A stretch of DNA of 64,000 nt, from assembly GCA_913009335.1 (NCBI GenBank), contig CAJVXN010000001.1:2844-66843 (forward strand), given 5' to 3'. Source of the stretch: an uncultured bacterium (GTDB lineage: Bacteria; Omnitrophota; Gorgyraeia; Ghiorseimicrobiales; Ghiorseimicrobiaceae). Shown one piece after another: positions 17,878-35,581 of this stretch. A program made the translations under genes and the position numbers. The notes under the pieces were generated by a model. The model was not told the origin of the DNA. It did no database searches and worked only from the letters and a program-made list of their open reading frames with translations. The stretch's first letter is position 1. The number at the start of each line of letters is the position of its first letter.

Positions 17878-17969
17878 ACCTCCCCCTATCGTTATAAACC
17901 AATAAGCAGCCTATTGAAAACCAGGCTACTTATTGGCCATTAATTGATATCTTGCGATTATATTAAACA

Positions 17970-19244: not shown

Positions 19245-19289
19245 TCACCTCCCTTTTTTACGTTTCTAATTTTTCCGTTATGGATATAT

Positions 19290-19325
19290 AAAAAAAAGAC
19301 ACTTATGCATTGATAAGTGTCTTAA
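19290..19325 (-). terminator. Rho-independent terminator after the octaheme cytochrome gene
   Basis: An 11-bp perfect stem, aagacacttat/ataagtgtctt, with a 6-nt loop. On the minus strand it is followed by an 8-nt U-run. Confidence 0.7.
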
Positions 19326-19434
19326 TGCGCTTTATCCTAGAAAGATATTTTTCTGTCATATCAATTATTTGCTTCGTGAAAGATATCACTAAATTTCTAT
19401 GCGTTTATTTTACCACTCTACTCTATGCTGTCAA

Positions 19435-20853: not shown

Positions 20854-21835
20854 AATCGGCTAAATCGCCTAACGCATCACGATAACTGGAGCGAGAAAGC
20901 TTACCTAAGCTGTGTTTTGATTTATTAATAGAGGACAAGGCTTCTTCTTTTGTTTTTATAAATATTGCACTATCCTTTATCTTGTCTTTTATCTTATCCA
21001 TTATTTCTTTACTAATATTACGTTTGGCTAAATGCTCTTTAAGTTCTTTCCTGTCTTTAGCAGCCAGCGAATTAAATAAATCATAAAGCGGAAGAGTTAT
21101 TTCTCCTTGCGCGATATCCTGCCCTCCAGACTTACCTAATATAGACTTAGCAGCTATAATATCTAAATAGTCATCGACAACCTGAAAAGCAATACCAAAA
21201 TTTACTCCGTAATTATTTAAGGCAGTGTATTTCTCCTTATCGTGATTACCAGCAATAAGCGCGGCACCTTTACAACAGGCCGATATCAATGCTGCTGTTT
21301 TTTTATTAACTATTACCATATACTCTTTTTGCGGAAGGTCAAAATTATCTCGTTCGAAAATCTGAAAAAGCTGGCCCTCGCACATTGCCCTCGCGGCCAC
21401 TGCGACACAGCCTAAGACATCCGGATGCCCGCATTTCGCGACCAGTTCAAACGCCTTTGTGTAGATATAATCCCCAAATGCGATAGAGACATCTTCGCCC
21501 CACTTTGCGTGTATTGTTTGTTTATTGCGGCGCGTTAAAGAGTTATCAATAATATCATCATGTATAAGGCTCGCGGTATGTATAAGTTCGATTGCCGCTG
21601 CCATGCGAATCAATAAACTTAAATCTTTTGATTTTAATTTTCCGTTTGCTGCTGCGTGCGCTGAAAGCATTACCAGAGCCGGCCTAAGACGCTTGCCTCC
21701 CCAGCCCAATAAATAATCATTAATCCGGCATAATGAATTATATTTTGTGTTAAGATGACTCCTTAAGAGATCTTCTACTCTACAAAGATCTTCTGTAATC
21801 GGCTGGTAGATATTTTTCAGCTTTTTCATCTTCAT
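20819..21835 (-). CDS. Long-chain polyprenyl diphosphate synthase (IspB-like)
   Basis: LIHDDIIDNS (first DDxxD) and DDYLD (second) motifs. 338 aa. Confidence 0.75.
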   Translation of the reverse strand: MKMKKLKNIYQPITEDLCRVEDLLRSHLNTKYNSLCRINDYLLGWGGKRLRPALVMLSAHAAANGKLKSKDLSLLIRMAAAIELIHTASLIHDDIIDNSLTRRNKQTIHAKWGEDVSIAFGDYIYTKAFELVAKCGHPDVLGCVAVAARAMCEGQLFQIFERDNFDLPQKEYMVIVNKKTAALISACCKGAALIAGNHDKEKYTALNNYGVNFGIAFQVVDDYLDIIAAKSILGKSGGQDIAQGEITLPLYDLFNSLAAKDRKELKEHLAKRNISKEIMDKIKDKIKDSAIFIKTKEEALSSINKSKHSLGKLSRSSYRDALGDLADYVIERGFGACL

Positions 21836-21921
21836 GCTATTCAGAGGAATGTACCTTCCTTTCCCTTGAAGGAAGGGTGCTATTCAGAGGAATGTACCTT
21901 CCTCTCCATTAAAGGAAGGGT
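21836..21921. repeat. Two tandem 43-bp direct repeats, each forming a hairpin, filling the MenA-IspB intergenic gap
   Basis: gctattcagaggaatgtaccttcctttcccttgaaggaagggt and gctattcagaggaatgtaccttcctctccattaaaggaagggt. Each has an accttcc/ggaaggt stem. Confidence 0.8.
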
Positions 21922-22847
21922 GCTATCCGATCCAGAATAAAACCAAGGCTTAAAACAATACCTATAATAAGATGTAATTTTATTGTTGCGGCGTTTGAAA
22001 AGAGTAATCGTTGAGTATTATTAAAATTTTTTGATACATTTTTTGCAGCTTTATAGGCTAAAGGAATAGTAAAAAGTGAAAACAGGCAATATGCGGGAAT
22101 AATTTTATAAATTACAGTGAGAAGAATAAAGGAATAAGTTAAAATCAATAAAATTTGATACAGATAAACTGCTCTTGCCTTTCCCAGTAAAACAACTACA
22201 GTATTCTTGCCTACCGCCTTATCTGCCTGATAATCCGGAAACTCATTAATATAAAGGATTAGGAGCACTAGAATACCGATAGGGACCGCGCTTACAACCG
22301 GCACCATACCTAATGTTTTTGCCTGGACATAATAACTACCCAAAACAACAAGCGGGCCAAAACATAAACCCACAACTATCTCTCCCATTCCACGATAGCC
22401 TATCTTCAAAGGAGTCGCAGTATAGAAAATTGCCATGGCGACACCGGCTAAACCCAAGAATAGAACCACATTGGTTTTAAGCTGAAAATTAAGATACAAT
22501 CCAATAATACTTCCGAGGAAAAAAGATAAAAACGCAAACAAAGAAACATTACGGGGAGACATTTGGCCGTCCTGGATAACACGGCTTCCTCCGCTAAAAG
22601 GAGTAAAATTCAAATTCGCTTCATCATTGCCGCTTTTATGATCAAAATAGTCATTAATAAGATTTGTACCTATATTAATAGCAGCAATACCTAAAAGAAC
22701 AAGGCAGAAAAAATACCAGTTAAATAATCCGGTTTTATACCAGGCAATAACCGAACCAAGTAAAACTGGCACAAGCGTCGCAGTTAAAAAAGGAACCCTT
22801 GCTGCTTTTAGATAAATTGATATCCGACTAAAATTAAGCTTGCTCAA
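21909..22847 (-). CDS. UbiA-family prenyltransferase, MenA-like (1,4-dihydroxy-2-naphthoate polyprenyltransferase)
   Basis: NDYFDHKSGNDEA Asp-rich motif. About 9 TM helices. Adjacent to the polyprenyl synthase. Confidence 0.65.
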   Translation of the reverse strand: MSKLNFSRISIYLKAARVPFLTATLVPVLLGSVIAWYKTGLFNWYFFCLVLLGIAAINIGTNLINDYFDHKSGNDEANLNFTPFSGGSRVIQDGQMSPRNVSLFAFLSFFLGSIIGLYLNFQLKTNVVLFLGLAGVAMAIFYTATPLKIGYRGMGEIVVGLCFGPLVVLGSYYVQAKTLGMVPVVSAVPIGILVLLILYINEFPDYQADKAVGKNTVVVLLGKARAVYLYQILLILTYSFILLTVIYKIIPAYCLFSLFTIPLAYKAAKNVSKNFNNTQRLLFSNAATIKLHLIIGIVLSLGFILDRIAPFL

Positions 22848-23391
22848 TTTTTATTGTACCCGTTGGGCAAATATAAGCACAGGCGCCGCAGCCAATGCAA
22901 ACATCGTTAATCTTATCAAAAGGTGTGCCTACTTTTCTATGCAATCCACGCTGTTTAAAGCTTATAGCGCTGACCCCTACAATTTCACGGCAGGCACGAA
23001 CACATAAACCGCAAAGGATACAATTACCTTTATCTTTCGGTTTAATGCGTAACCTGGGTAATCCATATTCTTTAGCAAGCTCCTGAAGCCTTTCTGTCTC
23101 AGGGCTCATGGCTAATAAAAGCTCCATAACGATTTTTCGCGTACGCCTCACCCTCTCGCTATCAGTCTTAATAATCAATCCCTCTGTAACCTTGTATAAA
23201 CAAGAGGCCTGAAGACTAGGCCTTGCCCCTCCTACAATCTCAACAACGCAAAGACGACACGCGCCATAAGGAGATAATTCTTTATGATAACATAAAGTAG
23301 GAATCTTTATACCTGCCTCAAGTGCTGCCTCTAATATACTCTTTCCATCATCTACTTCTAAATTCTTATCATTAATTATAATGTTAACCAT
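22834..23391 (-). CDS. Ferredoxin with an N-terminal 2Fe-2S and two 4Fe-4S clusters, resembling the N-terminal domain of HydA/NuoG/HndD with no catalytic domain
   Basis: CYHKELSPYGACRLC...C (2Fe-2S), CILCGLCVRAC and CIGCGACAYICP. 185 aa. Confidence 0.65.
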   Translation of the reverse strand: MVNIIINDKNLEVDDGKSILEAALEAGIKIPTLCYHKELSPYGACRLCVVEIVGGARPSLQASCLYKVTEGLIIKTDSERVRRTRKIVMELLLAMSPETERLQELAKEYGLPRLRIKPKDKGNCILCGLCVRACREIVGVSAISFKQRGLHRKVGTPFDKINDVCIGCGACAYICPTGTIKIEQA

Positions 23392-23409
23392 GAATACACC
23401 TTTTAGTTT

Positions 23410-23868
23410 TTATTTCTTACAATCTACGCAAGAATCGAAATGATATTTATCATCCCCTTTTTTATAATCATAAACAAACCGTATTGCTGGATAAGCCGTA
23501 ATTAAACTAGCCAGAGTTTCTAAAATATCACCTACGGGCTTAAGATCCGGAGAATTAAGTTTAAAAATTGCTCTTATTATAGTACCCTGTCCCAGTTCTG
23601 AATTTATTTTTAAAGTACCCCCTGTATCCTGGGCTGCTTGAGCAAATAACGAAAGACCTAGTCCAATTCTTTTGCCGTCTTTCGTGGTGAAAAAAGGATC
23701 GAGGGCTTTTTTACGCATATCTTCATTCATCCCCCTCCCATCATCCTTAATAGAGATAATTAGCTCTTCCCTCAACGTATCTTCAAAAACCTCTATACTT
23801 ATATTCTTTGCATCTGCCCGAACCGCGTTTTCTGTTATATCAAGTATATGTAGAGATAAATCCTGCAT
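23410..23868 (-). CDS. Histidine-kinase-like ATPase domain protein (anti-sigma-factor/Ser-protein-kinase type), hydrogenase-cluster-associated family
   Basis: HATPase_c features: DDGRGM, GLGLSL, GTIIRAIF. 152 aa. Confidence 0.6.
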   Translation of the reverse strand: MQDLSLHILDITENAVRADAKNISIEVFEDTLREELIISIKDDGRGMNEDMRKKALDPFFTTKDGKRIGLGLSLFAQAAQDTGGTLKINSELGQGTIIRAIFKLNSPDLKPVGDILETLASLITAYPAIRFVYDYKKGDDKYHFDSCVDCKK

Positions 23869-23874
23869 AAGAGG

Positions 23875-24603
23875 CTAAAAAATAACTTTTCTTCCTTCTG
23901 TGACACTAAGCGCCATTTTAAATTCTGAAAAGCTTAAATCTTCCAATAAAAACTTCGTATGTGCCCTTCCAACATCAGCCAAGAAATGAGCATCCGAAGA
24001 TTTGATAAGCGGCAGATCGTAATTTTTATAATCCGCGACTTTTTCTGAGTTATAATTTACAGATAGCTCCAAAGCATCTAGCTGTAAGCCTTCAGGGATA
24101 AAACCTAATTGACTAATAACGCTGAATGTTTGTTTATCAATATGCGAAGCAATGGCTATACCGCCGAAATCATGAACCAGCTTAACTATCCTTCTTAATG
24201 TTAAATCGGTTGAACCAATCAACAACTTATTATTACTGCCGCCTGATTTATCGTACTCATCCACAATCAATTGTTTCCCGAAGAACTCTTCATTGTTTTC
24301 TCCGGATAAATTTTTATAAACAATATCCTGTATTTGCATTAAGGTTTTGTTCTTATCAAAAAAAGCTAAGATATGTACTTCTTCGGATGAGGTTATCTCT
24401 ATACCCACAAAGACTTTTAGCCCCTCTCTTTCGCCTGCCTTCCTTACAGCAGCTGCGTTCTCTGCTGAGTTATGATCGCAGATTCCAATTACATCCAGAC
24501 CGCGTTCTTTCGCCTGCTTAACAATTGACCTCGGCAACATTTCTAAATCACCACACGGAGACAAACAAGTATGGATATGCAAATCCATCTTAAACTCCTT
24601 CAT
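23875..24603 (-). CDS. PHP-domain metal-dependent phosphoesterase
   Basis: MDLHIHTCLSPCGD N-terminus (the HxH motif of the PHP family). 242 aa. Confidence 0.65.
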   Translation of the reverse strand: MKEFKMDLHIHTCLSPCGDLEMLPRSIVKQAKERGLDVIGICDHNSAENAAAVRKAGEREGLKVFVGIEITSSEEVHILAFFDKNKTLMQIQDIVYKNLSGENNEEFFGKQLIVDEYDKSGGSNNKLLIGSTDLTLRRIVKLVHDFGGIAIASHIDKQTFSVISQLGFIPEGLQLDALELSVNYNSEKVADYKNYDLPLIKSSDAHFLADVGRAHTKFLLEDLSFSEFKMALSVTEGRKVIF

Positions 24604-24650
24604 CCCGTCCGTCCTTCCTAAGCTTATTCCCTCCTTTGGGAAAGGCGGGG

Positions 24651-25004
24651 CTAAGCATTATCTTGGGACCCCTTAATACCCAGAGCATACAACTTACCGA
24701 CTAGTTCAAATGCCGGCATCTTACTTACTAGAATCGGCACATTCTCACTCTCTGCTTTTTTAACAGTATCTTCTTCAGGCTCTCTATTGTTTATCAATAC
24801 AATGCCGGATAGCCCTTTCATGCTAGCCACTGCCACAACATTACTATGAATCTGTAAGGTAATCCATAAATCACCTTCTCGCGCATTAGCTAGCACATCA
24901 CTTAAAAGATCGCTTGCATACCCCCCTGTTACTTCCCTATCTAAATCCGTAGCCGTACCTATTACCTCTAAGCTCATTTTTTCTACTATTTCTTTTAATT
25001 TCAT
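24651..25004 (-). CDS. DRTGG-domain protein
   Basis: 117 aa. DREVTGGYASDLLSDVL matches the DRTGG family. A paralog is at 26190-26543. Confidence 0.6.
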   Translation of the reverse strand: MKLKEIVEKMSLEVIGTATDLDREVTGGYASDLLSDVLANAREGDLWITLQIHSNVVAVASMKGLSGIVLINNREPEEDTVKKAESENVPILVSKMPAFELVGKLYALGIKGSQDNA

Positions 25005-25272
25005 TTTTCACCTCAATGAGTCCGCCATTGAATCAGTGGCGGGCGAATTGATCCCGCCTGTCCCGCGTTTTTTGGCGGGGTTGAGTGTATCAAAATTATC
25101 GCACCCTCTGGAATTTCACTCCGTGAAATTCCGAGGACTTTAGTCCCGGGAATTCTTCTAATTCCACGGGGAGAAAATTTTGATACTTCTTATCCTCTGC
25201 AATTCAGAGAATTGCGAGGACTTAATCCCTGAAATTTCTCCGAAATTTCTAGGGGCGAAACGGGATTTCATT
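25005..25272. repeat. Intergenic structured repeat element rich in GAATT-core hairpins. A related copy in opposite orientation is at 55335-55513.
   Basis: It shares the 22-nt string tccgccattgaatcagtggcgg (as its reverse complement) and a ccgagga(c)tt(t)agtcccgggaatt segment with 55335-55513. It contains gaatttcac-tcc-gtgaaattc (9-bp stem) and gcaattc-aga-gaattgc hairpins. Confidence 0.7.
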
Positions 25273-26193
25273 TTATCCGGCTTTCATATTAATACATATC
25301 TTAAGACGTGTACCTTTACCAACGGTCGACTCTATATCTAATTTATCAGCACATTTTTTAATATTACATAGGCCCATGCCAGCGCCAAAACCAAGATTCC
25401 TGATCCATTCAGGCGCGGTAGAATAACCCGGTTTTAATGCTTGGGCAACATCGGGGATACCCGGACCGGAATCCGTAACATGAATTTGTATCTTATCTGA
25501 CTGCACTCGAACAGATATCTCTCCGCCACTGGTATAAGAAACAACATTTATCTCCGCCTCATATGAAGCAATGGCTGCCCGACGGACAATCTGAGGGTGA
25601 ATACCTAGACGCGTCAACGTTTTTCTTATTCCGCTGGATACCTCACCTGCCCGATTAAAATCTTTACCTTTGACAAAATACTCAAACCTCAAAATGGTTT
25701 TATCAGCTATAATATCTTCAAATATATGACTCGCGCGATAACGATGAATTTCTTCTTCATGATAATCAATCTCTAGCTCACGAAGCAAACTTTCAATAAT
25801 ATCACCTTTAGTAATTACCCCCAGCAATTTACCGGTTGCCCGATCAATCACAGGAAAACGCCCAAACCCTAACTTGTCAAGCTTACCAATCGCATGAACC
25901 AGCGGCTCATCATCATACAGGGTTTTAATCGATCTGGTCATCCTGCTTTCTATGGGGCAATCTTTTCCTCCTTCCGCGAGCCACTTAATAAAATCTTCAA
26001 TACTTATTATTCCTACTAATTTATCATGCTCAACTATGGGTGTACCGGAGATACGATTAGACCTTAGTGTCTCTCCTAATTCGCTCATTAAGATATCCGG
26101 ACTAGAGCGAATTATATCCTTTCTCATAGCATCACGTACCTTTAACTCGTAAACTAATTCCTGAACTTTGGTAATCTTTTTTTCATTATTCAT
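25273..26193 (-). CDS. CBS-pair plus histidine-kinase-like ATPase domain protein
   Basis: Two CBS motifs (GTPIVEHDKLVGIIS, RFPVIDRATGKLLGVIT). C-terminal HATPase (GLCNIKKCADKLDIES). Confidence 0.6.
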   Translation of the reverse strand: MNNEKKITKVQELVYELKVRDAMRKDIIRSSPDILMSELGETLRSNRISGTPIVEHDKLVGIISIEDFIKWLAEGGKDCPIESRMTRSIKTLYDDEPLVHAIGKLDKLGFGRFPVIDRATGKLLGVITKGDIIESLLRELEIDYHEEEIHRYRASHIFEDIIADKTILRFEYFVKGKDFNRAGEVSSGIRKTLTRLGIHPQIVRRAAIASYEAEINVVSYTSGGEISVRVQSDKIQIHVTDSGPGIPDVAQALKPGYSTAPEWIRNLGFGAGMGLCNIKKCADKLDIESTVGKGTRLKICINMKAG

Positions 26194-26543
26194 TTTAACC
26201 CATCACAACTAAGCAAACCTTCTTTATATAACCTGCCGCAACAGGCATACATGGAAAACTCGCTCACTAAAACCGGGATCTCTTTCTCTTGAGCTAATTT
26301 CAAGGTTTTTTCTTGCGGCTTTTTGCCACGCACAAAACAAATCGCAATTACTTCCGCCATCTCCGCGGTACGCACAACCTGAGGATTAGTAAGGCCGGTC
26401 AAAAGTACGGCATCTGCCTTAATAAATGCCAACACATCGCTCATTAAATCAGACCCACAGGCCATTTTTACATCTTTGTCTAAAAATTTGTCTCCGTACA
26501 ATACTTTTGCGTTTAATACCTCTTTTAACTGTTTTAATTTCAC
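26190..26543 (-). CDS. DRTGG-domain protein (paralog)
   Basis: 117 aa, collinear with 24651-25004. Confidence 0.55.
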   Translation of the reverse strand: MKLKQLKEVLNAKVLYGDKFLDKDVKMACGSDLMSDVLAFIKADAVLLTGLTNPQVVRTAEMAEVIAICFVRGKKPQEKTLKLAQEKEIPVLVSEFSMYACCGRLYKEGLLSCDGLK

Positions 26544-26688
26544 CCCGTCCTTCCTTTCTAAATTTTATACTTCACTTAAAATTATATTTATACCCGCTCT
26601 ACCTTATTTATCGCTCTACTTTAAGAAGGGCGGAATGAACCCAGTCCTTCCTTCTCAAGCTTATCCCATCCTTTAGGAAGGGCTGGGT

Positions 26689-28500
26689 TCATTTTGAATA
26701 CGCAGCTCCTATCTTACAGACTTTTACACAGATACCGCATTTAGTACATTTATTTAAATCTATTTCGTGCGGTTTTTTTACCATACCGGAAATTGCATCA
26801 GCAGGACATTCACGCCCACAAAGCGTACACCCCGTGCATTTATCAGCATTAATATAATACCTTACTAACGGTTTACATACCCCCGCGGGACACTTTTTAT
26901 GTTTTATATGATCCAGAAATTCATCGCGGAAATGCCGCAGAGTGCTTAATACCGGATTTGGCAGAGTTTGGCCCAGACCACACATTGAAGCATCTTTTAT
27001 CGCAATACAAAGCTCCTCTAAATAATCTAAATCTGACTCCTCTCCCTCTCCGTTAGATATTTTATCAAGAATTTCAATAAGTGTTATTGAACCTTCCCGG
27101 CAAGTAGAACACTTCCCGCAAGATTCATCACTTGTAAATGTGAGAAAAAACTTTGCGATATCAACAATACAGGTATCCTCATCCATTACCACCATTCCAC
27201 CTGAACCCATTATAGCTCCCACTTCCTTAAGACGTTCATAATCTACGGGAAGATGGAGAAGACGCGCGGGAATAAACCCTCCGGATGGACCTCCGGTCTG
27301 AACCGCTTTAAGCTTTTTATTATTAGGTATACCAGCGCCAATATCATAAACTATCTCGCGTAAGGTTATCCCCATGGGGACCTCAACTAATCCGGCATTA
27401 TTTACATTGCCGGCAAGAGAGAAAACTTTTGTCCCACGGCTTGTCTCTGTGCCTATCTGAGAAAACCACTTAGCCCCCCAACTTATTATCATGGGAACAT
27501 TGGCCCAGGTCTCTACATTATTAATATTAGTAGGGGCTCCCCAGAGACCGGATTGCGCAGGAAATGGAGGTTTCTGTGTTGGTTCAGGAACTATACCTTC
27601 CAAAGAATGAATCAAGGAAGTTTCTTCTCCGCAAACAAAGGCACCCGCACCCTCAAAAATTTCAATATCAAAACTAAAATCACTACCAAATATATTTTCT
27701 CCTAAGAGGCCATATTCCTTTGCAAGCTTTATCGCAGTCTTCATCCTGGCGATAGCTAATGGATACTCAATTCTTAAATATATATATCCATCCGTTGCCC
27801 CCATGGCATATCCACCTATGCACATACCCTCAATGATAGAATGCGGATCAGCTTCAACTATGCTCCTATCCATAAAAGCGCCTGGATCTCCCTCATCAGC
27901 ATTACATATAACATAACAACGAAGATTTTTGCTTTGTTTTCTTTTCTCTAATACCTGACTGCGGCATATATCCCATTTTTTACCTGTTGGAAATCCAGCA
28001 CCGCCTCTACCGCGCAGGCCCGCATCGGTAATTTCCTTTATTACGTCTTCAGGGCTCATACCGGTTAAAACTTTTGCCAGCGCTTTATAACCATCATTAG
28101 CGATATATTCATCAATGCTTTCGGGGTCTATTATACCGCGATTCCTTAAAGCAATAAGTCTCTGATCCTTAAAAAACGGAATATCACTTATTTTAGGAAT
28201 AGGGATATCTTTTCCTTCGGGCACATACATAAGCTCCTTTACCGGCCTACCCTTTAAGAAATGTTCCTGGACTAAATTGGGAATATCTTTCTCTTGTATA
28301 TATTGGTAGAAGATACCGTCAGGCTGGACTATAAGTATCGGCCCTTTAACACAAAGACCGCTTGCTCCAGTTTGTACAACTAAAACATCATTTTCAAGGC
28401 TCTGTTTTACGATTTCAGCCTCAAGGGCATTCTTTATTTTTAATGCACCATTAGATATACAATTGGTACATGTGCAAATCATTGCATGTAAACGCTGCAT
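26689..28500 (-). CDS. NuoF/HydB/HndC-like NADH-binding flavoprotein with an N-terminal thioredoxin-like 2Fe-2S domain and C-terminal 2x[4Fe-4S]
   Basis: GRGGAGFPTGKKW (NADH/FMN site). SLBB. CGKCSTCREG (N3-type cluster). C-terminal CTGCTLCGRECP and CTKCGICVKVC. 603 aa. Confidence 0.8.
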   Translation of the reverse strand: MQRLHAMICTCTNCISNGALKIKNALEAEIVKQSLENDVLVVQTGASGLCVKGPILIVQPDGIFYQYIQEKDIPNLVQEHFLKGRPVKELMYVPEGKDIPIPKISDIPFFKDQRLIALRNRGIIDPESIDEYIANDGYKALAKVLTGMSPEDVIKEITDAGLRGRGGAGFPTGKKWDICRSQVLEKRKQSKNLRCYVICNADEGDPGAFMDRSIVEADPHSIIEGMCIGGYAMGATDGYIYLRIEYPLAIARMKTAIKLAKEYGLLGENIFGSDFSFDIEIFEGAGAFVCGEETSLIHSLEGIVPEPTQKPPFPAQSGLWGAPTNINNVETWANVPMIISWGAKWFSQIGTETSRGTKVFSLAGNVNNAGLVEVPMGITLREIVYDIGAGIPNNKKLKAVQTGGPSGGFIPARLLHLPVDYERLKEVGAIMGSGGMVVMDEDTCIVDIAKFFLTFTSDESCGKCSTCREGSITLIEILDKISNGEGEESDLDYLEELCIAIKDASMCGLGQTLPNPVLSTLRHFRDEFLDHIKHKKCPAGVCKPLVRYYINADKCTGCTLCGRECPADAISGMVKKPHEIDLNKCTKCGICVKVCKIGAAYSK

Positions 28501-28648
28501 AACTTATATCCTCTAATGACGACACAAGTTATAAAGCTATAAACTATATAACTTGTACGTCGGAATTAGACCCTTGACATCTTTGATGTCAAGGGTAAGT
28601 TCGGACAGACACCTTACGTCATTAACATTCCGTAAGCTGTGCCCTCAC
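28501..28648. repeat. Structured intergenic element (three hairpins), paralogous to 29057-29176
   Basis: Shared segment cgtcggaatt(a/g)(g/a)acccttgacatctttgatgtcaagggta with a perfect 11-bp palindrome cccttgacatc/gatgtcaaggg. Flanking hairpins acaagttata/tataacttgt and cttacg/cgtaag. Confidence 0.75.
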
Positions 28649-29056
28649 TTACAGCACTCTCTCGCTGCCGACTGCCAAGGCGTATTCTTTAACAATATTT
28701 CCGCCAATTACGTGTTTTTCTAAAATTTCTTTAGCCTTATCAGGCGTTAAATCTACGTATTTAACCGGCGGTTCATTCTTCATTTCAACTGTTACCATAG
28801 GTTCACGACTGCAAAACCCCGCACAGCTGGACAATGTTAAAATCACATCTTTTAAATCGCGCTTTTCAATTTCTTCCATAAGGGCGGTCATAACAGTTCT
28901 AGCACCTGCGGCAATTCCACATGTACCCATATGCACAATCACTCTTGCGCGAGACTCTCCCTCGCGCAGATTTATTGTTTTCTTCATCTTCGCAGCTATC
29001 CTATCTAAATCTTCCGGTTTTAATTTTGGCATAATTAACTCCTTCAATGACGACAA
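28649..29056 (-). CDS. HndB/NuoE-type thioredoxin-like [2Fe-2S] ferredoxin (small)
   Basis: 135 aa. HMGTCGIAAGA...SSCAGFCSREP Cys pattern. Confidence 0.6.
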   Translation of the reverse strand: MSSLKELIMPKLKPEDLDRIAAKMKKTINLREGESRARVIVHMGTCGIAAGARTVMTALMEEIEKRDLKDVILTLSSCAGFCSREPMVTVEMKNEPPVKYVDLTPDKAKEILEKHVIGGNIVKEYALAVGSERVL

Positions 29057-29176
29057 AGGTTATGGAGTTAAAAACGACATAACTTTTGCGTCGGAATTGA
29101 ACCCTTGACATCTTTGATGTCAAGGGTAGATTCAGCCAGCAAGCTTACGAAGCGAAATCGTTCGTAAGCTTGGGCT
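29057..29176. repeat. Structured intergenic element (three hairpins), paralogous to 28501-28648
   Basis: Same conserved palindrome. The third hairpin is caagcttacgaa/ttcgtaagcttg, a 12-bp stem that compensates for the cttacg/cgtaag stem of the other copy. Confidence 0.75.
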
Positions 29177-30130
29177 TCATTTATACTTCTTTAAAACGTC
29201 ATCTACCTTGCTTATTTTCACATATCCATAAATATCATCATTAACAGATACTGCCGGTGATTGACCACAACAACCAATACAGTTAACCGTATCAAGGCTA
29301 AAGTTCAAATCTTTTGTCGTCTCACCGACTTTTATACCTAATTTATTCTCTAAAGAATGTAATATTTTATTTCCGCCTTTAACATAACAAGATGTCCCCA
29401 TGCAAACCCTAATAATATTTTTGCCTCTTGGCTTAAGGCTAAAAGCATTATAAAAAGTAGAAACGCGAAATACATGCGTAAACGGAAGTTCCATAAGCTG
29501 CGATACATACCAAAGGACATTTTCAGGAAAATAACCATAGGTACGATCAATTTCCTGTAAAATAAAAATAAGAGCTCCCTTGGTATTCCTGTAAGCATCA
29601 ACCATCTCTTCAACTCTGGACTTTTCTGACTTATCAAGTTTGGTCACAAATCGCTCATCATCTTCTGCTTCTTTCTTTAAATCAGTTATATTAAATATCC
29701 ATCTTAGTTTAGGATCATAGCTACGGTTCTTTACTATATTTCTAATAGTAGTTAAATAATCCGGGATGTATATATTGATATCATTTTTTACCTTAACCTG
29801 ACAAGCAAGACGCATATTATCATGTTTTTCCTCGCGGCTCATAAATATTTCCTCGGTAGGAAGTATTTCACCGCCGCCGTTTAATACTTTTATCTTGCAA
29901 TACCCACAAGTTGCTTTACCACCGCAAGAAGATGAAACATTTATATCATTCGCGGTAAGATCGGCAATTAAATAATTCCCGCCTTCAACAACAAACTCCT
30001 TCTCCTGGTCTTCCTGCTTAACGGTTATCTTACATTCACCATAATTAATAAGCACGCGGTCGGCGATGGTAAGCAAAACCGTTACCACGAGAAGAATCCC
30101 ATTCATTACTATTACAGGTAAAAAATTCAT
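29177..30130 (-). CDS. Membrane-anchored fusion: NqrF-type plant-like 2Fe-2S ferredoxin domain plus NuoE-type thioredoxin-like 2Fe-2S domain. It occupies the RnfB/NqrF position of the operon.
   Basis: N-terminal TM helix. SSCGGKATCGYCKIKV...LACQV (NqrF/ferredoxin 2Fe-2S). C-terminal RVCMGTSCYVKG...CIGCCGQSPAV (NuoE motif). 317 aa. Confidence 0.6.
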   Translation of the reverse strand: MNFLPVIVMNGILLVVTVLLTIADRVLINYGECKITVKQEDQEKEFVVEGGNYLIADLTANDINVSSSCGGKATCGYCKIKVLNGGGEILPTEEIFMSREEKHDNMRLACQVKVKNDINIYIPDYLTTIRNIVKNRSYDPKLRWIFNITDLKKEAEDDERFVTKLDKSEKSRVEEMVDAYRNTKGALIFILQEIDRTYGYFPENVLWYVSQLMELPFTHVFRVSTFYNAFSLKPRGKNIIRVCMGTSCYVKGGNKILHSLENKLGIKVGETTKDLNFSLDTVNCIGCCGQSPAVSVNDDIYGYVKISKVDDVLKKYK

Positions 30131-30154
30131 AATAAATAAACTTTGATAAGGAAA

Positions 30155-30742
30155 CTATTGAATCCTGACCATCCCTCCAAAACCTAAAAACGCTAAAGCA
30201 ATAATTCCCGCGATAATCATGATAATGCCCGGGCCGCGAAGCCCCTTAGGAATATCTGAAACTAATCTTAATTTTTCATTTATCGCTGCAACTATCAAGA
30301 TTGCCAGCATCCAGCCTACGGCTGAACCAAAAGCAAAAACAATAGTGGCTAAGTATGAATAGCTTCTTAGCACCATAAAAAGGGAGACTGCCAATACTGT
30401 ACAATTTACGGTTATCAGCGGAAGAAAAATCCCGAAAGAAGCCTGCAAAACGACAAAAAATTTCTCCATAATCATCTCAACCAGCTGAACGCTTGCGGCA
30501 ATAACAATGATAAAAACGATATAGTAAATAAGCTCACATCCTGCCGGAACAAGAATTAAATGATAAATAGGCCAGTTAATAGCTGCCGTAAGCGTTACTA
30601 CAAAAATTACGGCAATACCCATACCAAAAGCAGTCTTAAAACTTTTAGATAAAGCTATAAAAGGACACATGCCTAATAAATAGGTAAGCGCAATATTATG
30701 CGTAAAAACAGCAGCAATAAAAATAGTTAATAAATTACCCAT
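30155..30742 (-). CDS. rnfA: Rnf/Nqr complex subunit A (RnfA/NqrE family)
   Basis: 195 aa, six-TM, polar Cys in TM (GCELIYY). Operon position. Confidence 0.7.
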   Translation of the reverse strand: MGNLLTIFIAAVFTHNIALTYLLGMCPFIALSKSFKTAFGMGIAVIFVVTLTAAINWPIYHLILVPAGCELIYYIVFIIVIAASVQLVEMIMEKFFVVLQASFGIFLPLITVNCTVLAVSLFMVLRSYSYLATIVFAFGSAVGWMLAILIVAAINEKLRLVSDIPKGLRGPGIIMIIAGIIALAFLGFGGMVRIQ

Positions 30743-30744
30743 AA

Positions 30745-31374
30745 TTATTCCTTGGACTCAACTCCTGCGATAGTTCTTGTTATCCACAAATAAATACTCA
30801 ATACAAAAAATGCCCCCGGAGCCATAGCCATCATTACCCAATTTGTCCAACCATCAGGCATGACCCTAAAACCTAAAATAGTACCAAAGCCTAGCGACTC
30901 GCGCACAATAGCAATAATCACCAGTGTATACGAATAGCCCAATCCAACACCCAATCCATCCATCATAGAATGCGTTATTTTATTCTTACTGGCAAAAGCC
31001 TCGGCTCTTCCCATGATAATACAGTTGGTAATAATAAGCCCGACATAAGGACCGATAGCTTCACGTATTACAGGATAAAAAGCCTGCAGGAAACGGTCTA
31101 CAATAATTACAAAAGAAGCAATGGCTATCATGTAAGTTATAATACGCACACGAGCAGGTATAAAATTCCTTAAAGCGGAGATAGTAAGAGCCGTAAAGAT
31201 TAAAACAAAGGTAACGCCGGCACCCATAGCAATGGCATTTTCTACTTTATTTGTTACGGCTAAACCGGAACAAATACCTAAAAGCATACAAAAAACAGGA
31301 TTATCGCGCCAAAGGCCAATCATCATAACCTTAAACCCTTTCGCGCGTAGAAGTTTTTTTATGTTCTTTGCCAT
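30745..31374 (-). CDS. rnfE: Rnf/Nqr complex subunit E (RnfE/NqrD family)
   Basis: 209 aa integral membrane protein, paralogous fold to subunit A. Operon position. Confidence 0.7.
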   Translation of the reverse strand: MAKNIKKLLRAKGFKVMMIGLWRDNPVFCMLLGICSGLAVTNKVENAIAMGAGVTFVLIFTALTISALRNFIPARVRIITYMIAIASFVIIVDRFLQAFYPVIREAIGPYVGLIITNCIIMGRAEAFASKNKITHSMMDGLGVGLGYSYTLVIIAIVRESLGFGTILGFRVMPDGWTNWVMMAMAPGAFFVLSIYLWITRTIAGVESKE

Positions 31375-31377
31375 ATT

Positions 31378-31950
31378 CTAGTTTTCCTTAATAAGTGCTA
31401 AATACTCTCCCACCTGATTATTTATTAATTCTTCAAATGCCTTACTCGTCATTGTAGCTCCTGTAATCGCATCCACTTCATTTTCTGCCTTTGCCTTACC
31501 ATGAGGCACAATTTTTAAAGCTGGGAATACTTTTTTACCCTGAAACTTAGCTAAGTATTCTTCTTCGCTAATCCTGCCCCCTAAACCGGGAGTCTCCTCC
31601 TGATGTATAATAGTTATCCCTTTAATACTTTCAAAATCCGGATTAAAAGCAATAATTCCTTTAATCGGACCCCATACACCCGAACCCTTAATTCCAAATG
31701 CAACCTCCCTTGAGAGAGATAGATAGAATTCCTTATTTTCTTTTTGTACTACTTCAATATTATCAGAGAATATATCCTCTAAGTTTTCCTTGGTGTAAGA
31801 AATATCAAAAACATCAAGTACGCTTCTCTTCTTCTTAAGCTCCTCATTCTTTTGGATGATGGGAGTCGTATAATGATTAATCGCAACAAGCAACGTAGTA
31901 AAGAAGCTTCCCAGAAGTACAACGAAAATGATAATTTTTAATACTTTCAT
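31378..31950 (-). CDS. rnfG: Rnf/Nqr complex subunit G (RnfG/NqrC), FMN-binding
   Basis: N-terminal TM anchor. DAITGATMTSKAF (covalent-FMN Thr motif). 190 aa. Confidence 0.75.
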   Translation of the reverse strand: MKVLKIIIFVVLLGSFFTTLLVAINHYTTPIIQKNEELKKKRSVLDVFDISYTKENLEDIFSDNIEVVQKENKEFYLSLSREVAFGIKGSGVWGPIKGIIAFNPDFESIKGITIIHQEETPGLGGRISEEEYLAKFQGKKVFPALKIVPHGKAKAENEVDAITGATMTSKAFEELINNQVGEYLALIKEN

Positions 31951-31955
31951 TTATA

Positions 31956-33053
31956 TTAGGTGGTTGGTTTTAATTTACCAGTTACCTTCTTAGGTTCTTT
32001 ATATTTTACTGCAAGCACAACATGATCAATTAAAGGCGCAAAAGCATTCATTAAAAGTATGCTGAACATAACCCCTTCAACATAACCGGAAAGCGCACGA
32101 ATTAAAACTGTTAATAATCCTAGCAATATCCCCCCTACCCATTTCCCTTCCTTGGTAAAAGGTGAAGTTACCGGATCAGTAGCCATAAACATCGCGCCAA
32201 AAAGAAGCCCGCCGGTTAAAAGCTGAAAACTTGGCGGTGCAAATTTTAGGGGTGCTAAATTATTGCCGATAAGTGAGAATATAGCTACCGAAGCTAAATA
32301 GGAAAAAGGTATGCGCCAATTAACTATACGTGTTATAATCAAAAATATTCCGCCGAGAATTATTCCCAACCTAAAGACTTCACCGATACATCCCCCGCTA
32401 AACCCAAACAGTAAATCACTAAATGATGCTAAGACATTCTCACTACGAAAAGCATTTAAAGGTGTCGCAGCTGTTATGGCATCCACGCCAAATTTACTAA
32501 ACCCCCCTAAACCCCCGATATAAGGCTTGGGCCAACCTACGGTCATTATCAAAGGAAAGCATATAGTTAAAAAAATCCTGCCGACAATCGCCGGGTTAAA
32601 TATGTTTTTACCTGTTCCGCCAAATACTTCTTTTCCAAAAAATACACCAAACATAACCCCAAGGGCTACAACCCATAAAGGAATAGACGGCGGAAGCAGT
32701 AACGGAAAAATTAATCCCGTAACCAAAAATCCTTCATGTATTTCTTTCTTTCGCGCAACCGCAAAAGCAACTTCTACCACACCGCCGGCTATATAAGAAA
32801 CAAGTATGACTAAGATCACACGCAGTCCCCAAAAATAAACCGCTGCAGCTACAGCAGGAAGAAGAGCAATAATCACAAAACTCATATAACGTTTTATATC
32901 AAGATAATCGGTTATGTGAGGAACCGTATTTAGCTCATCCGTGCCAAAAAGAGCTCCATCCAGAGCAGTTAATACCGGTTTAAATTTACTTAGAAATTTA
33001 TTCTTCTCTACTAGCTTAAAACTTATATCCAACGCCTTACGGACTATCTTCAT
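31956..33053 (-). CDS. rnfD: Rnf/Nqr complex subunit D (RnfD/NqrB)
   Basis: 365 aa polytopic membrane protein. GGLLFGAMFMATDPVTSP conserved region. Confidence 0.7.
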   Translation of the reverse strand: MKIVRKALDISFKLVEKNKFLSKFKPVLTALDGALFGTDELNTVPHITDYLDIKRYMSFVIIALLPAVAAAVYFWGLRVILVILVSYIAGGVVEVAFAVARKKEIHEGFLVTGLIFPLLLPPSIPLWVVALGVMFGVFFGKEVFGGTGKNIFNPAIVGRIFLTICFPLIMTVGWPKPYIGGLGGFSKFGVDAITAATPLNAFRSENVLASFSDLLFGFSGGCIGEVFRLGIILGGIFLIITRIVNWRIPFSYLASVAIFSLIGNNLAPLKFAPPSFQLLTGGLLFGAMFMATDPVTSPFTKEGKWVGGILLGLLTVLIRALSGYVEGVMFSILLMNAFAPLIDHVVLAVKYKEPKKVTGKLKPTT

Positions 33054-34555
33054 AATTTAGTAGTTATTCCTTTGTATTCTTTAAGCCCTTTTAACTTAAA
33101 ATGCGGTAAAATGCTGCTCGACCGTTCGATTCCCTCCATGGCCAATTTTTTCTCGCCTTCTTTTATAAGTTCAAGAAGGGGAATTTTCGAAGGACACACA
33201 TAGCTGCATAAACCACATCCAATACAATTAAAAATCTTAAATCTTACTAAAGAATCATCGATTATATTATTTTTTACATACTTACCCAATAAATGCGGAA
33301 TTATCTGCACAGGGCAAACTTCTTCGCAATAATTACAGCTTATGCATGGCCTCAGTTCTCCGTGAATATTCGTATCCAGGGTCTTATCACAAAACGGAAA
33401 AACACTTGATGCAAACGTATTAGAATAAGCATCGCGCTTAACGCCCAAGCGAAGGAATGAGAAAAACTCTCTCTTATTATTCTCCGGCAAAGCAATAATC
33501 TTAGAAGTTGCCTTAGTTACAGGTAAAGATAAATCTGTAAGTTTATCACCCACAAGTGTATTTTCTAAAACAATTCGCGAACTTACATCAGTTCTTAAAT
33601 AAGATTTAAGAATATCCGCTATAGGCGTACCTATCCTCACCTTCAAATGCGGCGTATCATTAAACCCCGGTCCGCAGATGGCAATAGTACGCTCAATTAA
33701 AGGCTTCCCTTTTACTACTGCCTCATATACGGAAAGTATTGTCTGAGCGTTTAAAACAATTACCCCGAGATTAGCGGCATAATAGCCAAATGGAAACTTC
33801 TCACCCAAAACAGTCGCAACAAGCATCTCATCATACCCCTGAGGATACTTTGGCTCTAAAGAAATAATATTGATAAAGCCATATTGAGAAACAGCCTCAG
33901 ATAACTTTTCATTAATCTGCATATCAGTCTTACTTAAGGCAAGGTAAATATTAGCCTGAGGCATAAAAGCATGCAAAATCCGTAATCCTTCTATGTAATC
34001 TAAAACCCTTTTTTCGCCCAATAATAATTCTTGAGAAAGATTATAAACGTCAAATCCGATTGCAGGAACAATAATACTTCTAACATCTTTAGGGGTAATG
34101 ATTGAGCTTTTAAATTTTGTGGGAATTCCTGATTTATCTAAAGAAGTTACGCCAGCTAAATACAATATGCTTTCAATTTCCTCATTTTTTAGTTTCGCCC
34201 AATCAGAAGTAAACCCTTTAACTTTTTTACAATCATCTGCTTTATCTTTCCGGGTAGATATTCTTACTATTTGAGTTTCATGCCCCAAATAGTTTGAAAG
34301 CTTTATTTCTTTAACTACCCCAGATACAGATGCATGCACAGGGCTTGAGACATTTGAATCATCCCTTCCGATAATCTGTCCTGCGACTACAATATCACCT
34401 TCCTTTACCAAAGAAACAACACCCATCCCAAAACCTTGCTTTAAAGGAATAAGCACTTCATTAGGAATATCTTGCGTAGTCAGCATATCACGCGGACAAC
34501 CCTCAATTCGCCTGAAACGATACCCGCCCTTGAATGTATATTGTTTTTTCTTCAT
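33050..34555 (-). CDS. rnfC: Rnf complex subunit C-like (RnfC/NqrA family) with C-terminal 2x[4Fe-4S]
   Basis: N-terminal barrel-sandwich domain (SSPVHASVSGVVKEI). C-terminal CISCNYCEEVCP and CIGCGLCSYVCP. The expected GGAGFP NADH/FMN glycine motif appears as CGPGFNDTP. 501 aa. Confidence 0.6.
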   Translation of the reverse strand: MKKKQYTFKGGYRFRRIEGCPRDMLTTQDIPNEVLIPLKQGFGMGVVSLVKEGDIVVAGQIIGRDDSNVSSPVHASVSGVVKEIKLSNYLGHETQIVRISTRKDKADDCKKVKGFTSDWAKLKNEEIESILYLAGVTSLDKSGIPTKFKSSIITPKDVRSIIVPAIGFDVYNLSQELLLGEKRVLDYIEGLRILHAFMPQANIYLALSKTDMQINEKLSEAVSQYGFINIISLEPKYPQGYDEMLVATVLGEKFPFGYYAANLGVIVLNAQTILSVYEAVVKGKPLIERTIAICGPGFNDTPHLKVRIGTPIADILKSYLRTDVSSRIVLENTLVGDKLTDLSLPVTKATSKIIALPENNKREFFSFLRLGVKRDAYSNTFASSVFPFCDKTLDTNIHGELRPCISCNYCEEVCPVQIIPHLLGKYVKNNIIDDSLVRFKIFNCIGCGLCSYVCPSKIPLLELIKEGEKKLAMEGIERSSSILPHFKLKGLKEYKGITTKL

Positions 34556-34613
34556 ATTATATGTTTAGCCCCGATAAACTTTAGCTACACAAACTACAAA
34601 ACCTAACAAGCGA

Positions 34614-34703
34614 TTGTACTGCGTTTCGCACAGCACCCCACTGTATTTACCCAATGGTTGCACTGCGCTTTACGCAGCACCCCACTGTATTTATCTAATG
34701 GTT
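34614..34703. repeat. Two tandem ~44-bp direct repeats with internal palindromes, between rex and rnfC
   Basis: tgtactgcgtttcgcacagcaccccactgtatttacccaatggt and tgcactgcgctttacgcagcaccccactgtatttatctaatggt. The second contains ctgcg-cttta-cgcag. A Rex-box-like TTGTTAAATAGCTCACAG (3 mismatches) follows at 34701-34718. Confidence 0.7.
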
Positions 34704-34747
34704 GTTAAATAGCTCACAGTGAAATCAATCACGACCTTAGGAAAAAA

Positions 34748-35383
34748 TTAACTTTTTGATTTAGTTAAAAAATAGGCTAATCTCTCAAGCTCGATTGAAA
34801 GATCTATATTAAGCAGACCTACCGAAGGCGGAACCTGTGGTCTGATAGGAGCAAAATTAAGTATAGCTTTGACTCCGGATTTTATTAAAATATTTATTAC
34901 CTCCTGCGCGCCTTCACCGGGTGTGGCAACAATACCAATGGAAATATTACGTTCCTTTACAGTATTTCCTAATTCACTAATATCCTGTATCTTAATTCCT
35001 TCCAACGTCTTACCAACTCTACGCAAATCATTATCAAAGGCACAAATAATCTTAAATCCTTGTTTCTCAAATCCTTTATAAGAAAGCAAAGCTGTGCCTA
35101 AATTACCAACACCGGCTAAAACAACATCCCAATTTTTATCCGTACCAAGAATTGATAAAATAGCTTTTTTTAATGCCTCAACCTCATACCCCTTACCGGG
35201 TGTACCAAATTGGCCAAAATAGGTTAAATCACGTCTAACTTGAGCAGCCGTAAAGTTAGTTAATTTCGAAAGCTCATCAGAAGAAACATAATCTTTACCG
35301 CGCGATTCTACTAAAACCCGATAATACAACGAAAGTCTCGGAACTGCTGCTTGAGGAATTTTATTAATCATATAGAGACCCAT
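34748..35383 (-). CDS. rex: Redox-sensing transcriptional repressor Rex
   Basis: N-terminal winged helix (IPQAAVPRLSLYYRVL). Rossmann NADH-binding GVGNLG. 211 aa. Confidence 0.85.
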   Translation of the reverse strand: MGLYMINKIPQAAVPRLSLYYRVLVESRGKDYVSSDELSKLTNFTAAQVRRDLTYFGQFGTPGKGYEVEALKKAILSILGTDKNWDVVLAGVGNLGTALLSYKGFEKQGFKIICAFDNDLRRVGKTLEGIKIQDISELGNTVKERNISIGIVATPGEGAQEVINILIKSGVKAILNFAPIRPQVPPSVGLLNIDLSIELERLAYFLTKSKS

Positions 35384-35429: not shown

Positions 35430-35447
35430 TAGTTAAATGTTTCACAA
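35430..35447. promoter_or_regulatory. Possible Rex operator upstream of rex (autoregulation)
   Basis: TAGTTAAATGTTTCACAA. The right half-site TTCACAA is perfect and the left half has 2 mismatches. It sits 47-64 nt upstream of the rex start. Confidence 0.35.
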
Positions 35448-35581
35448 ATACTAATATGTTACTACTATACTAAAATAATTTTGATTGTCAAGAAAAATCT
35501 GCTGGCTGGCGATTAAATTTTTACTTGATGCCGCAAATACTTTTGGGGCGCAAGAAAAAAATACCTTAATCGAAGCTGAAT

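Follow-up and report, generated by a model that had tools for sequence, protein, structure and literature searches.

The DNA analysed here, referred to as the window, is a 64,000-nt stretch (positions 2,844 to 66,843) of contig CAJVXN010000001.1 in assembly GCA_913009335.1, a genome of Candidatus Omnitrophota derived from marine metagenome data. It carries an operon in which the genes for a membrane complex related to the ion pumps RNF and NQR stand next to genes for a Bfu-type electron-input head, with a fusion gene joining the two sets. An original prediction, made from the letters of the sequence, had described the locus as an Rnf/Nqr-type complex with a hydrogenase-like NADH-input module. 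We scored the domains of the open reading frames (ORFs) with Pfam and NCBIfam profile scans, and these matched all of the genes, coordinates and domain calls of that prediction. The minus strand holds every gene from 20.8 to 38.6 kb of the window, including the following genes of the operon, given in the order of transcription (FMN, flavin mononucleotide; aa, amino acids).

33050..34555, minus: subunit C, of the RnfC/NqrA fold, with RnfC_N, a weak Complex1_51K match and a 4Fe-4S dicluster
31956..33053, minus: subunit D (NqrB/RnfD family), NQR2_RnfD_RnfE, with the flavinylation motif TAAT194
31378..31950, minus: subunit G (NqrC/RnfG), FMN-binding, FMN_bind, with the motif TGAT163
30745..31374, minus: subunit E (NqrD/RnfE), Rnf-Nqr, with Cys29 and Cys118
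30155..30742, minus: subunit A (NqrE/RnfA), Rnf-Nqr, with Cys26 and Cys114
29177..30130, minus: fusion subunit, consisting of a transmembrane helix, an NqrF-type [2Fe-2S] ferredoxin domain, a linker of ~40 residues and a BfuC/NuoE/HydC-type [2Fe-2S] domain
28649..29056, minus: HndB/BfuD-like small thioredoxin-like ferredoxin, probable start ATG 29032, giving 127 aa
26689..28500, minus: BfuB/HydB-type flavoprotein, 603 aa, with an N-terminal [2Fe-2S] motif, an FMN/NADH site, an N3-type [4Fe-4S] motif, CPAGVC and a C-terminal 2x[4Fe-4S]
26190-26543, minus: DRTGG protein (domain scan)
25273-26193, minus: CBS plus HATPase protein (domain scan)
24651-25004, minus: DRTGG protein (domain scan)
23875-24603, minus: PHP protein (domain scan)
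23410-23868, minus: HATPase protein (domain scan)
22834..23391, minus: minimal BfuA, 185 aa, with 12 cysteines forming one [2Fe-2S] and two [4Fe-4S] motifs

The genes for C and D overlap by 4 nt, those for D, G, E and A are spaced by 2-5 nt, and 24 nt separate A from the fusion gene. A terminator scan of the coding strand found no terminator-like site in the intergenic gaps, the count being not above that in shuffled sequences.

Fusion subunit and conservation of the operon

The sixth gene encodes a Fer2 domain at residues 39-115 and a 2Fe-2S_thioredx domain at residues 174-317 (E 1.4e-46). The nqrF model aligns, at positions 5-128, with the first 130 residues (112.7 bits), the protein as a whole scoring under the cutoff of 295, and residues 8-130 of NqrF align with it at 78 bits. 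The NuoE-type domain is closest to HydC of T. kivui (161.6 bits). The AlphaFold model of the protein has a helix at residues 4-26; it is of low confidence (pLDDT 63), and only this N-terminal helix was used. Both sets of cluster cysteines, Cys69/75/78/110 and Cys243/248/284/288, are invariant in all 23 of the 23 sequences compared. This subunit had been proposed to be neither RnfB nor NqrF, which the scans bear out, because it consists of Fer2 and 2Fe-2S_thioredx and has no polyferredoxin part, no rnfB match, and neither FAD_binding_6 nor NAD_binding_1. The identification of 29177-30130 as an ordinary RnfB was thereby ruled out, and no RnfB-like polyferredoxin gene is found among the ORFs of the operon. 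The proposed tethering of a NuoE/HydC-type domain to the membrane complex via an NqrF-type ferredoxin domain is encoded as one continuous gene fusion.

Database comparison gave 880 relatives of the fusion protein; the two-domain architecture is present in all of the best 120. The gene order of the window was also sought in other genomes by a locus scan with one genome per species, in which the window proteins were mapped by tblastn and the ORFs of the loci were clustered. Among the resulting 80 loci, the order C-D-G-E-A-fusion-(HndB)-BfuB-(regulators)-BfuA recurs in about 33, representing about nine phyla; the eight core genes occur together in about 24-33, and the fusion protein is unbroken in the window and 29 loci. 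The loci with the operon are labelled Desulfobacterales, Desulfobulbaceae/Desulfocapsaceae, several orders of Planctomycetota, Latescibacterota, Lentisphaerae, Fibrobacterota/Chitinivibrionales, Spirochaetota and Desantisbacteria, and matches to the fusion protein in the databases also carry the labels Poribacteria and Omnitrophota. The operons of Desulfobulbaceae are minimal, consisting of only eight genes (C, D, G, E, A, fusion, BfuB and BfuA). In four Spirochaetales loci (L032, L033, L044 and L046), the NqrF-type ferredoxin is encoded by its own 149-aa gene, followed by a separate NuoE gene. Because the linkage persists in these loci, the association of head and core is independent of the fusion. 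The regulator genes of the same four operons come before those for HndB and BfuB. A Latescibacterota metagenome-assembled genome (MAG; L008, 17218-20951) contains a second C-D-G-E cluster directly behind the first operon; its C belongs to an NqrA-like subgroup bearing iron-sulfur (FeS) clusters, and the locus sequence stops ahead of the sixth gene.

The origin of the sixth subunit is indicated by seven homologues of C (48-57% identity) whose contigs we inspected. Five of these (L084-L088) lie in sister operons that have the order C-D-G-E-A followed by an NqrF-type gene (Fer2, FAD_binding_6 and NAD_binding_1) and then by UbiA and polyprenyl synthase genes, with Rex encoded upstream and no Bfu genes; their C subunits are 52-55% identical to that of the window. 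The remaining two, L089 and L090, are of the Bfu form. Two NqrF genes were scanned, those of L085 and L090, and both pass the nqrF equivalog cutoff; the C subunit of L085 passes rnfC and not nqrA. L090, an Omnitrophica CG11 MAG, is the closest relative of the window: its fusion protein is 73% identical, and it shares the pyrophosphatase-RluA-Rex flank. At 8894-10945 of L090, a canonical NqrF gene adjoins the Fer2-NuoE fusion gene in one operon, which continues with the full Bfu set, UbiA and polyprenyl synthase, and the N-terminal domains of the two proteins are 51% identical. The sixth subunit of the window is therefore an NqrF paralogue in which the reductase domain has been swapped for NuoE. 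A group of FMN_bind, NusG_II and Hpre_diP_synt_I-CbiQ genes lies just downstream of operons of both forms, at 19737-21464 of L084 (NqrF type) and 19775-20951 of L091 (Bfu type).

Lineage of the membrane subunits and of the Bfu head

The comparison of the membrane subunits with solved structures gave higher scores for NQR in each case: 177.9 bits for A with V. cholerae NqrE versus 133-150 with RnfA, 157 bits for E with NqrD versus 99-151 with RnfE, and 193 bits for D with NqrB versus 152-186 with RnfD. Neighbour-joining of the A and E paralogues together, each serving as the outgroup of the other, places A proteins of the window type with NqrE (95.5%) and E proteins of the window type with NqrD (94%). 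A neighbour-joining tree of concatenated A and E splits the RNF references from all others (100%) and the NQR of V. cholerae from the new clade (90%), and operons of the NqrF type and of the Bfu type are intermixed within it. Cys29 and Cys118 of E would ligate the membrane [2Fe-2S] cluster.

Subunit D points in the same direction. About 41 residues precede its 'VPHI' motif, corresponding to the N-terminal extension of NqrB: residues 4-77 align with three NqrB models from model position 2-3 onwards (E 3e-13 to 8e-9), whereas RnfD models begin aligning only at residue 42-45. The segment is kept in every family member examined. According to a 2025 review, the quinone site of NQR is built by two N-terminal NqrB helices that are absent from RnfD; judged by these alignments, the NqrB-specific quinone-site segment is present in D. 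The NCBIfam equivalog scores are all under the respective cutoffs (nqrB, 282.2 versus 349.9; nqrC, 103.2 versus 144; nqrD, 208.6 versus 244.85; nqrE, 196.1 versus 247.55), as are those for rnfG, rnfE and rnfA. Since the core subunits are all under the NQR cutoffs, the clade is distinct from canonical NQR.

Subunit C has a different profile. Its best solved match is RnfC (176 bits, versus 43 bits for NqrA), it passes the cutoff of the rnfC subfamily (255.1 versus 245.95) and not that of nqrA (113.7; cutoff, 321), and its AlphaFold model, of good confidence (pLDDT 82), superposes on RnfC with a TM of 0.76 versus 0.69 on NqrA. The FMN/NADH motifs of RnfC, however, are missing in window C, in 25 locus homologues and in 121 of 121 database homologues. 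The glycine-rich FMN loop 'GMGGATFPTH' of C. tetanomorphum RnfC is replaced by 'SLDKSGIPTKFK' in window C, and the motif 'NAAECEPY' by 'PAIGFDVY'; the consensus of the 121 homologues at these motifs reads 'SLDREGIPTRFKS' and 'HGVGSEPYN'. Both CxxCxxCxxxC motifs occur in all members, with Cys404/407/410/414 and Cys444/447/450/454 invariant in 33 of 33 sequences; in the C subunit of L012, one cluster cysteine is a histidine. A second subgroup of C, found in Desulfobulbaceae, Fibrobacterota and Lentisphaerales, is NqrA-like at the flavin-motif region. By these features, C stands between RnfC and NqrA as an intermediate, bearing FeS clusters and having no flavin motifs. The clusters are equally conserved in the sister operons that have NqrF and no BfuA and thus do not depend on BfuA, which also weakened the idea that they serve as its docking site.

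The original prediction had called the core Rnf-like with a sixth subunit added. The grouping of A and E with NQR, the NqrB-type D, the C subunit without FMN/NADH motifs and the existence of sister operons with NqrF speak against this description; the comparison of the subunits with their RNF and NQR counterparts, in which A and E were treed, places them on the NQR side and not the Rnf side. The membrane core thus belongs, by its sequences, to the NQR side of the RNF/NQR split and is not a plain Rnf. The view of the complex as an RNF/NQR intermediate is a fair description.

In the head, BfuB is, as had been supposed, a full-length flavoprotein of the bifurcating HydB/BfuB type: it aligns with HydB of A. 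woodii over residues 3-599 with 794 bits, whereas the NuoF of complex I covers only the central part (~residues 80-540) with ~290-394 bits. Further matches of BfuB are to the B subunits of NiFe-HydABCSL, NfnABC and WorABCSL, and both the cysteine pattern and 'KKCPAGVCK', the Zn/B2-site motif, are conserved. In some Planctomycetota operons (L004, 10982-14140; L006, L009 and L091), BfuB is 1027-1052 aa long. The proteins of L004 and L091 carry an extra C-terminal GltD-like domain (glutamate synthase small subunit, NADPH-binding), that of L009 shows a GltD-like sequence pattern, and that of L006 is known by its length only. The small HndB-like protein is encoded by a separate gene in 15 of ~33 loci. 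In L014 and L021, an HndB-like domain is joined to the N-terminus of BfuB, and longer BfuB ORFs in other Desulfobulbaceae loci suggest the same fusion.

BfuA of the window is the minimal form, with neither a His-ligated cluster nor a catalytic domain. Its best solved match is WorA (9mqx_A, 145.7 bits), which is the BfuA of WorABCSL and likewise minimal; neither protein has the A3 cluster, and the A4 cluster of WorA plugs into a [4Fe-4S] subunit. The homologous ORF encodes 185-229 aa in all of the linked loci. Taken together, the motifs of the soluble module indicate a complete Bfu core. Soluble relatives of the head (L034-L082) have the order NuoE-HndB-BfuB-DRTGG-CBS/HK-DRTGG-PHP-HATPase, and their BfuA domain lies inside a longer ORF, ~1085 aa in ~30 loci. 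The BfuA ORFs that we inspected, in L035, L037 and L075, are HdrA fusions (the ORF at 6798-10049 of L035 scores 841 bits with the HdrA2 model), and no H-cluster domain was seen among those read or scanned in these three loci. These soluble loci may represent an uncharacterised class of Bfu-Hdr enzymes. With HdrA fusions as the BfuA of the relatives and WorA as the nearest solved BfuA, there is no support for descent from a hydrogenase. The reading of the module as hydrogenase-derived was rejected on these two grounds, and the earlier notion that the 185-aa protein had lost a hydrogenase catalytic domain is likewise unsupported. The accessory regulator-like genes (DRTGG, CBS and PHP among them), which the same prediction had counted as completing the module, are present in the window, in 11-12 of ~33 loci and also in the soluble Bfu-HdrA operons, but are not part of the module in general, the minimal Desulfobulbaceae operons having none.

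Regulatory elements and neighbouring genes

The following features flank the operon or belong to its ends.

35430..35491, minus: promoter-like site (TTGACA, 16 nt, TATAGT) and Rex-box-like site (35430-35447) upstream of rex
34748..35383, minus: Rex, redox-sensing transcriptional repressor (NF003993, 245.6; cutoff, 217)
34556..34747, minus: leader between rex and C, with a 44-nt tandem repeat (34614-34701) adjoining a second Rex-box-like site (34702-34719)
21909..22847, minus: MenA, 1,4-dihydroxy-2-naphthoate polyprenyltransferase (TIGR00751, 135.9; cutoff, 102.15), overlapping the BfuA gene by 14 nt
20819..21835, minus: polyprenyl diphosphate synthase (domain scan)

Rex had been placed directly upstream of the operon, which the NF003993 match confirms, and the two Rex-box-like sites add to it. 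The gene also lies directly upstream of C in L016, L023, L026, L085 and L090. The promoter-like site of rex has 11 of 12 matches and is the best in the region, and the Rex-box-like site that comes after it differs from TTGTKAANNNNTTMACAA at one position. The window contains six Rex-box-like sites, versus 2.0 expected. Each unit of the 44-nt repeat in the leader between rex and C forms a hairpin, and the fold z-score of the leader is -5.1.

Two copies (80% identical) of a 115-nt element, at 28501-28648 and 29033-29176, precede the bfuB-like and hndB-like genes as their leaders. In both copies the fold comprises three strong hairpins, at -60.5 and -59.7 kcal/mol (z, -8.3 and -9.0), with no T-run behind the hairpins and no Rfam match. 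The element may function in intra-operon processing or as a regulatory RNA. When the copies are aligned, the start of hndB falls at ATG 29032.

Although all of the genes named in the original prediction are present, it had left out that the operon continues into menaquinone genes and that respiratory genes come after. A UbiA-family gene occupies the position of menA in relatives as well, and in about eleven relatives, spread over several phyla, the operon is flanked by polyprenyl synthase with or without MenA (L012, L013, L017, L019, L084-L088, L090 and L091). The stretch from menA to the polyprenyl synthase gene contains a 43-nt tandem repeat (21835-21920; 93% identical) whose fold is ordinary (z, -1.5). 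Past the operon, at 13697-20853, are genes for a multihaem cytochrome c, a Porin_5 protein, an ArrB-like FeS protein with a TAT signal, an ArrA-like molybdoenzyme and a TorD-like chaperone, followed by TatC and molybdenum cofactor genes. The ArrA-like protein scores 1251.8 bits against a cutoff of 1600, and the ArrB-like protein is also under its cutoff. On the other side, a Na+-pyrophosphatase is encoded two genes upstream.

Farther away, a four-gene cluster resembling group 3b NiFe sulfhydrogenase, with the protease HycI, occupies 2348-7088 and is preceded by a Rex-box-like site at 7071-7088 (one mismatch). At 851-2149, a single ORF encodes a HypC-like N-terminus followed by HydE, an [FeFe]-hydrogenase maturase. 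An IS110-family transposase at 58258-59478 is the only sizeable plus-strand ORF with a family match. The GC skew is negative over the entire window, in which no tRNA gene and no Rfam match were found.

Proposed function and relation to known systems

The tether between head and core is written in the fusion gene, and the cofactor motifs, the lineage and the genomic context can likewise be read from the DNA. On this basis, our preferred reading, held with middling confidence, is that the operon encodes a Na+-translocating NADH (possibly also ferredoxin):menaquinone oxidoreductase, a single membrane-bound respiratory enzyme of an undescribed NQR/RNF branch; its substrates, direction of electron flow, transported ion, quinone reduction and subunit association are what we infer. 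The enzyme would combine an NQR-lineage core (C, D, G, E and A) with a sixth subunit that retains the anchor and [2Fe-2S] domain of NqrF. The BfuC/NuoE domain, standing in place of the FAD/NADH reductase domain of NqrF, would recruit BfuB and the minimal BfuA. NADH would be oxidised at the FMN of BfuB, as expected from homology, and the electrons would pass from the [2Fe-2S] cluster of BfuC to the NqrF-type [2Fe-2S] domain to which the gene fusion tethers it. From there they would take the canonical route, for which the ligand motifs are present: the membrane [2Fe-2S] cluster of A/E, the FMN of G, and the FMN and riboflavin of D. Menaquinone would presumably be reduced at the NqrB-like site of D, with export of Na+ (or H+). 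Given the ferredoxin-facing C-terminal clusters of BfuB and the presence of both heads in L090, the head may also admit electrons from reduced ferredoxin.

Several lines of evidence support this reading. The fusion, the tight spacing and the co-occurrence across about nine phyla support a single complex; Rex and the Rex-like boxes upstream, together with the Rex-like box at the group 3b NiFe hydrogenase, support the NADH-oxidising direction; MenA, polyprenyl synthase and the downstream respiratory genes support a link to quinone; and the upstream Na+-pyrophosphatase supports a Na+ context.

Other points weigh against it. BfuA is conserved in every complete operon yet is without a role in the proposed mechanism, and the same is true of the eight invariant cysteines of C; the NqrA of canonical NQR requires no cofactor. 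The characterised relatives of BfuB and BfuC are all bifurcating and ferredoxin-using, so plain NADH oxidation may be too simple, and the encoding of both heads in L090 argues that the two are not functionally redundant. Rex control is not general, because a search for boxes upstream of C in 25 other loci found none. MenA may stand next to the operon through inherited synteny and not because of a functional link. Finally, the trees were built by neighbour-joining and contain one canonical NQR reference, that of V. cholerae.

An alternative that assigns a use to every conserved part, but that we consider improbable, is an equivalent of RNF built from NQR-lineage parts: a ferredoxin:NAD+ oxidoreductase without a quinone. 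Reduced ferredoxin would feed the C-terminal clusters of BfuB, and the electrons would pass through BfuC, the tethered ferredoxin, A/E, G and D with export of ions, returning through the two [4Fe-4S] clusters of C to BfuA, the FMN of BfuB and NAD+. This would account for the retention of both C clusters and of the ferredoxin-side domain of BfuB. It is also consistent with WorA, the closest solved BfuA, docking on a [4Fe-4S] subunit via A4, with the BfuA branch and the C1/B3/B4 branch being separate routes for NAD and ferredoxin in Bfu enzymes, and with the additional NqrF of L090, which leaves room for a second function. However, the C clusters are equally conserved in the NqrF sisters without BfuA, the NqrB-type quinone-site segment of D is kept in all members, MenA and polyprenyl synthase recur beside the operon, and control by Rex suits NADH consumption more than NADH production. 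In addition, the FMN and the BfuC cluster are near each other in Bfu cores, so that gating would be needed against a short circuit.

A second alternative, which we regard as similarly unlikely, is a bifurcating or confurcating pump with two wires, in which NADH, ferredoxin and menaquinone would be linked to one another by the Bfu core. One branch would run from the tethered ferredoxin into the ion-pumping path and the other from BfuA through the C clusters to the riboflavin of D, and the BfuB variants with a GltD-like domain (L004 and L091; L006 and L009 by length or sequence pattern) would add NADPH as a substrate. Apart from these variants, the completeness of the Bfu core, the joint presence of NqrF and Bfu heads in L090 and the membrane-bound Nuo-Bfu and Mbh-Bfu enzymes already predicted in the literature favour such a pump. 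However, a bypass from BfuA to C would short-circuit the pump unless gated, the C clusters occur without BfuA as well, and the energy of NADH to menaquinone is small for ferredoxin reduction plus ion pumping. Homology to the characterised Bfu members would predict that the head bifurcates electrons among NAD(H), ferredoxin and a third substrate. A bolder version, to which we give little credence, is that this is the first NQR/RNF-family pump coupled to flavin-based bifurcation or confurcation, in which two wires, fed by NADH and reduced ferredoxin, would give Na+ export a variable energetic gear, menaquinone accepting the electrons, and that the clade is a living RNF-to-NQR intermediate.

That the locus holds two chance neighbours, a soluble Bfu enzyme and an unrelated, incomplete Rnf/Nqr core, is highly improbable. 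The 120-148 nt gaps with strong hairpins between the fusion gene, hndB and bfuB and the occurrence of the same Bfu gene set in soluble operons elsewhere would fit it. Against it, a single gene encodes the NQR-type anchor and ferredoxin domain together with BfuC, no other subunit is present for input to the core, about nine phyla share the gene order, and the gaps contain no terminator-like site.

Whichever electron path applies, the operon bears on how these pumps are viewed. RNF and NQR are usually seen as two fixed six-subunit designs, and the full-text literature that we searched, including the Bfu family paper, the 2025 RNF/NQR review, the 2014 paper on NQR evolution and a flavinylation survey, does not describe the present architecture; genome papers report just 'Nqr' or 'Rnf', and neither the review nor the 2014 study describes RNF/NQR intermediates. 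The window operon and its relatives show the electron-input head to be exchangeable, being FNR-like or Bfu-like, with both in the operon of L090. The large branch with FeS clusters in a flavin-less RnfC/NqrA corresponds to the transitional state to be expected under the 2014 scenario of NqrA loss of function, and makes the function of NqrA, a long-standing question, experimentally approachable. At present, the genes are named NuoE, RnfC, NqrA or '4Fe-4S protein' in databases; therefore, reconstructions for Omnitrophota, Planctomycetota, Desulfobulbaceae, Latescibacterota and others may mis-score Rnf or Nqr.

Among known systems, the window operon shares with NQR the gene order, the grouping of A and E with NqrE and NqrD, the NqrB-type N-terminal segment of D, the NqrF anchor and [2Fe-2S] domain in the sixth subunit with cysteines at nearly identical positions, the lack of flavin motifs in C as in NqrA, and adjoining menaquinone biosynthesis genes. 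It differs from NQR in having BfuC, BfuB and BfuA instead of the FAD/NADH (FNR-like) domain, in a C subunit that has two [4Fe-4S] motifs and is nearer to RnfC in sequence and fold, in the absence from D of the NqrB loop at residues 84-131, and in the scores of every subunit, which are under the NCBI equivalog cutoffs for NQR. With RNF (RnfCDGEAB; 7ZC6, 9ERI and 8AHX), it has in common the membrane architecture, the cofactor motifs and, in C, the two [4Fe-4S] clusters of RnfC. However, the RnfB polyferredoxin is absent, C has neither the GxGGAxFP nor the ExEPY motif, A and E are separated from the RNF references at 100% bootstrap, and the N-terminal extension of D is absent from RnfD.

The head resembles the BfuABC family (HydABC, NiFe-HydABCSL, NfnABC and WorABCSL) in its full-length BfuB, BfuC-type [2Fe-2S] domain and WorA-like minimal BfuA. 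Unlike in these enzymes, BfuC forms one protein with an NqrF-type ferredoxin anchored in the membrane, an ion pump of the NQR type takes the place of a soluble catalytic subunit as partner, and BfuA has no H-cluster, tungsten, FAD or HdrA domain; compared with the [FeFe]-hydrogenase HydABC in particular, the BfuA-like ORF is a 185-aa protein without the H-cluster catalytic domain. Membrane-bound Nuo-Bfu and Mbh-Bfu enzymes were predicted by Schut et al. (2022, PMC9304861), with menaquinone as the proposed acceptor for Nuo-Bfu. These also place a Bfu core on an ion-translocating membrane complex, whereas the membrane module in the window is of the NQR/RNF type, a class unlisted in PMC9304861, so that the Bfu family would gain a third predicted membrane-bound type. 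Also close to the window operon are the sister operons L084-L088, which have the same types of C, D, G, E and A, Rex upstream, and UbiA and polyprenyl synthase downstream, but canonical NqrF in place of the Bfu genes.

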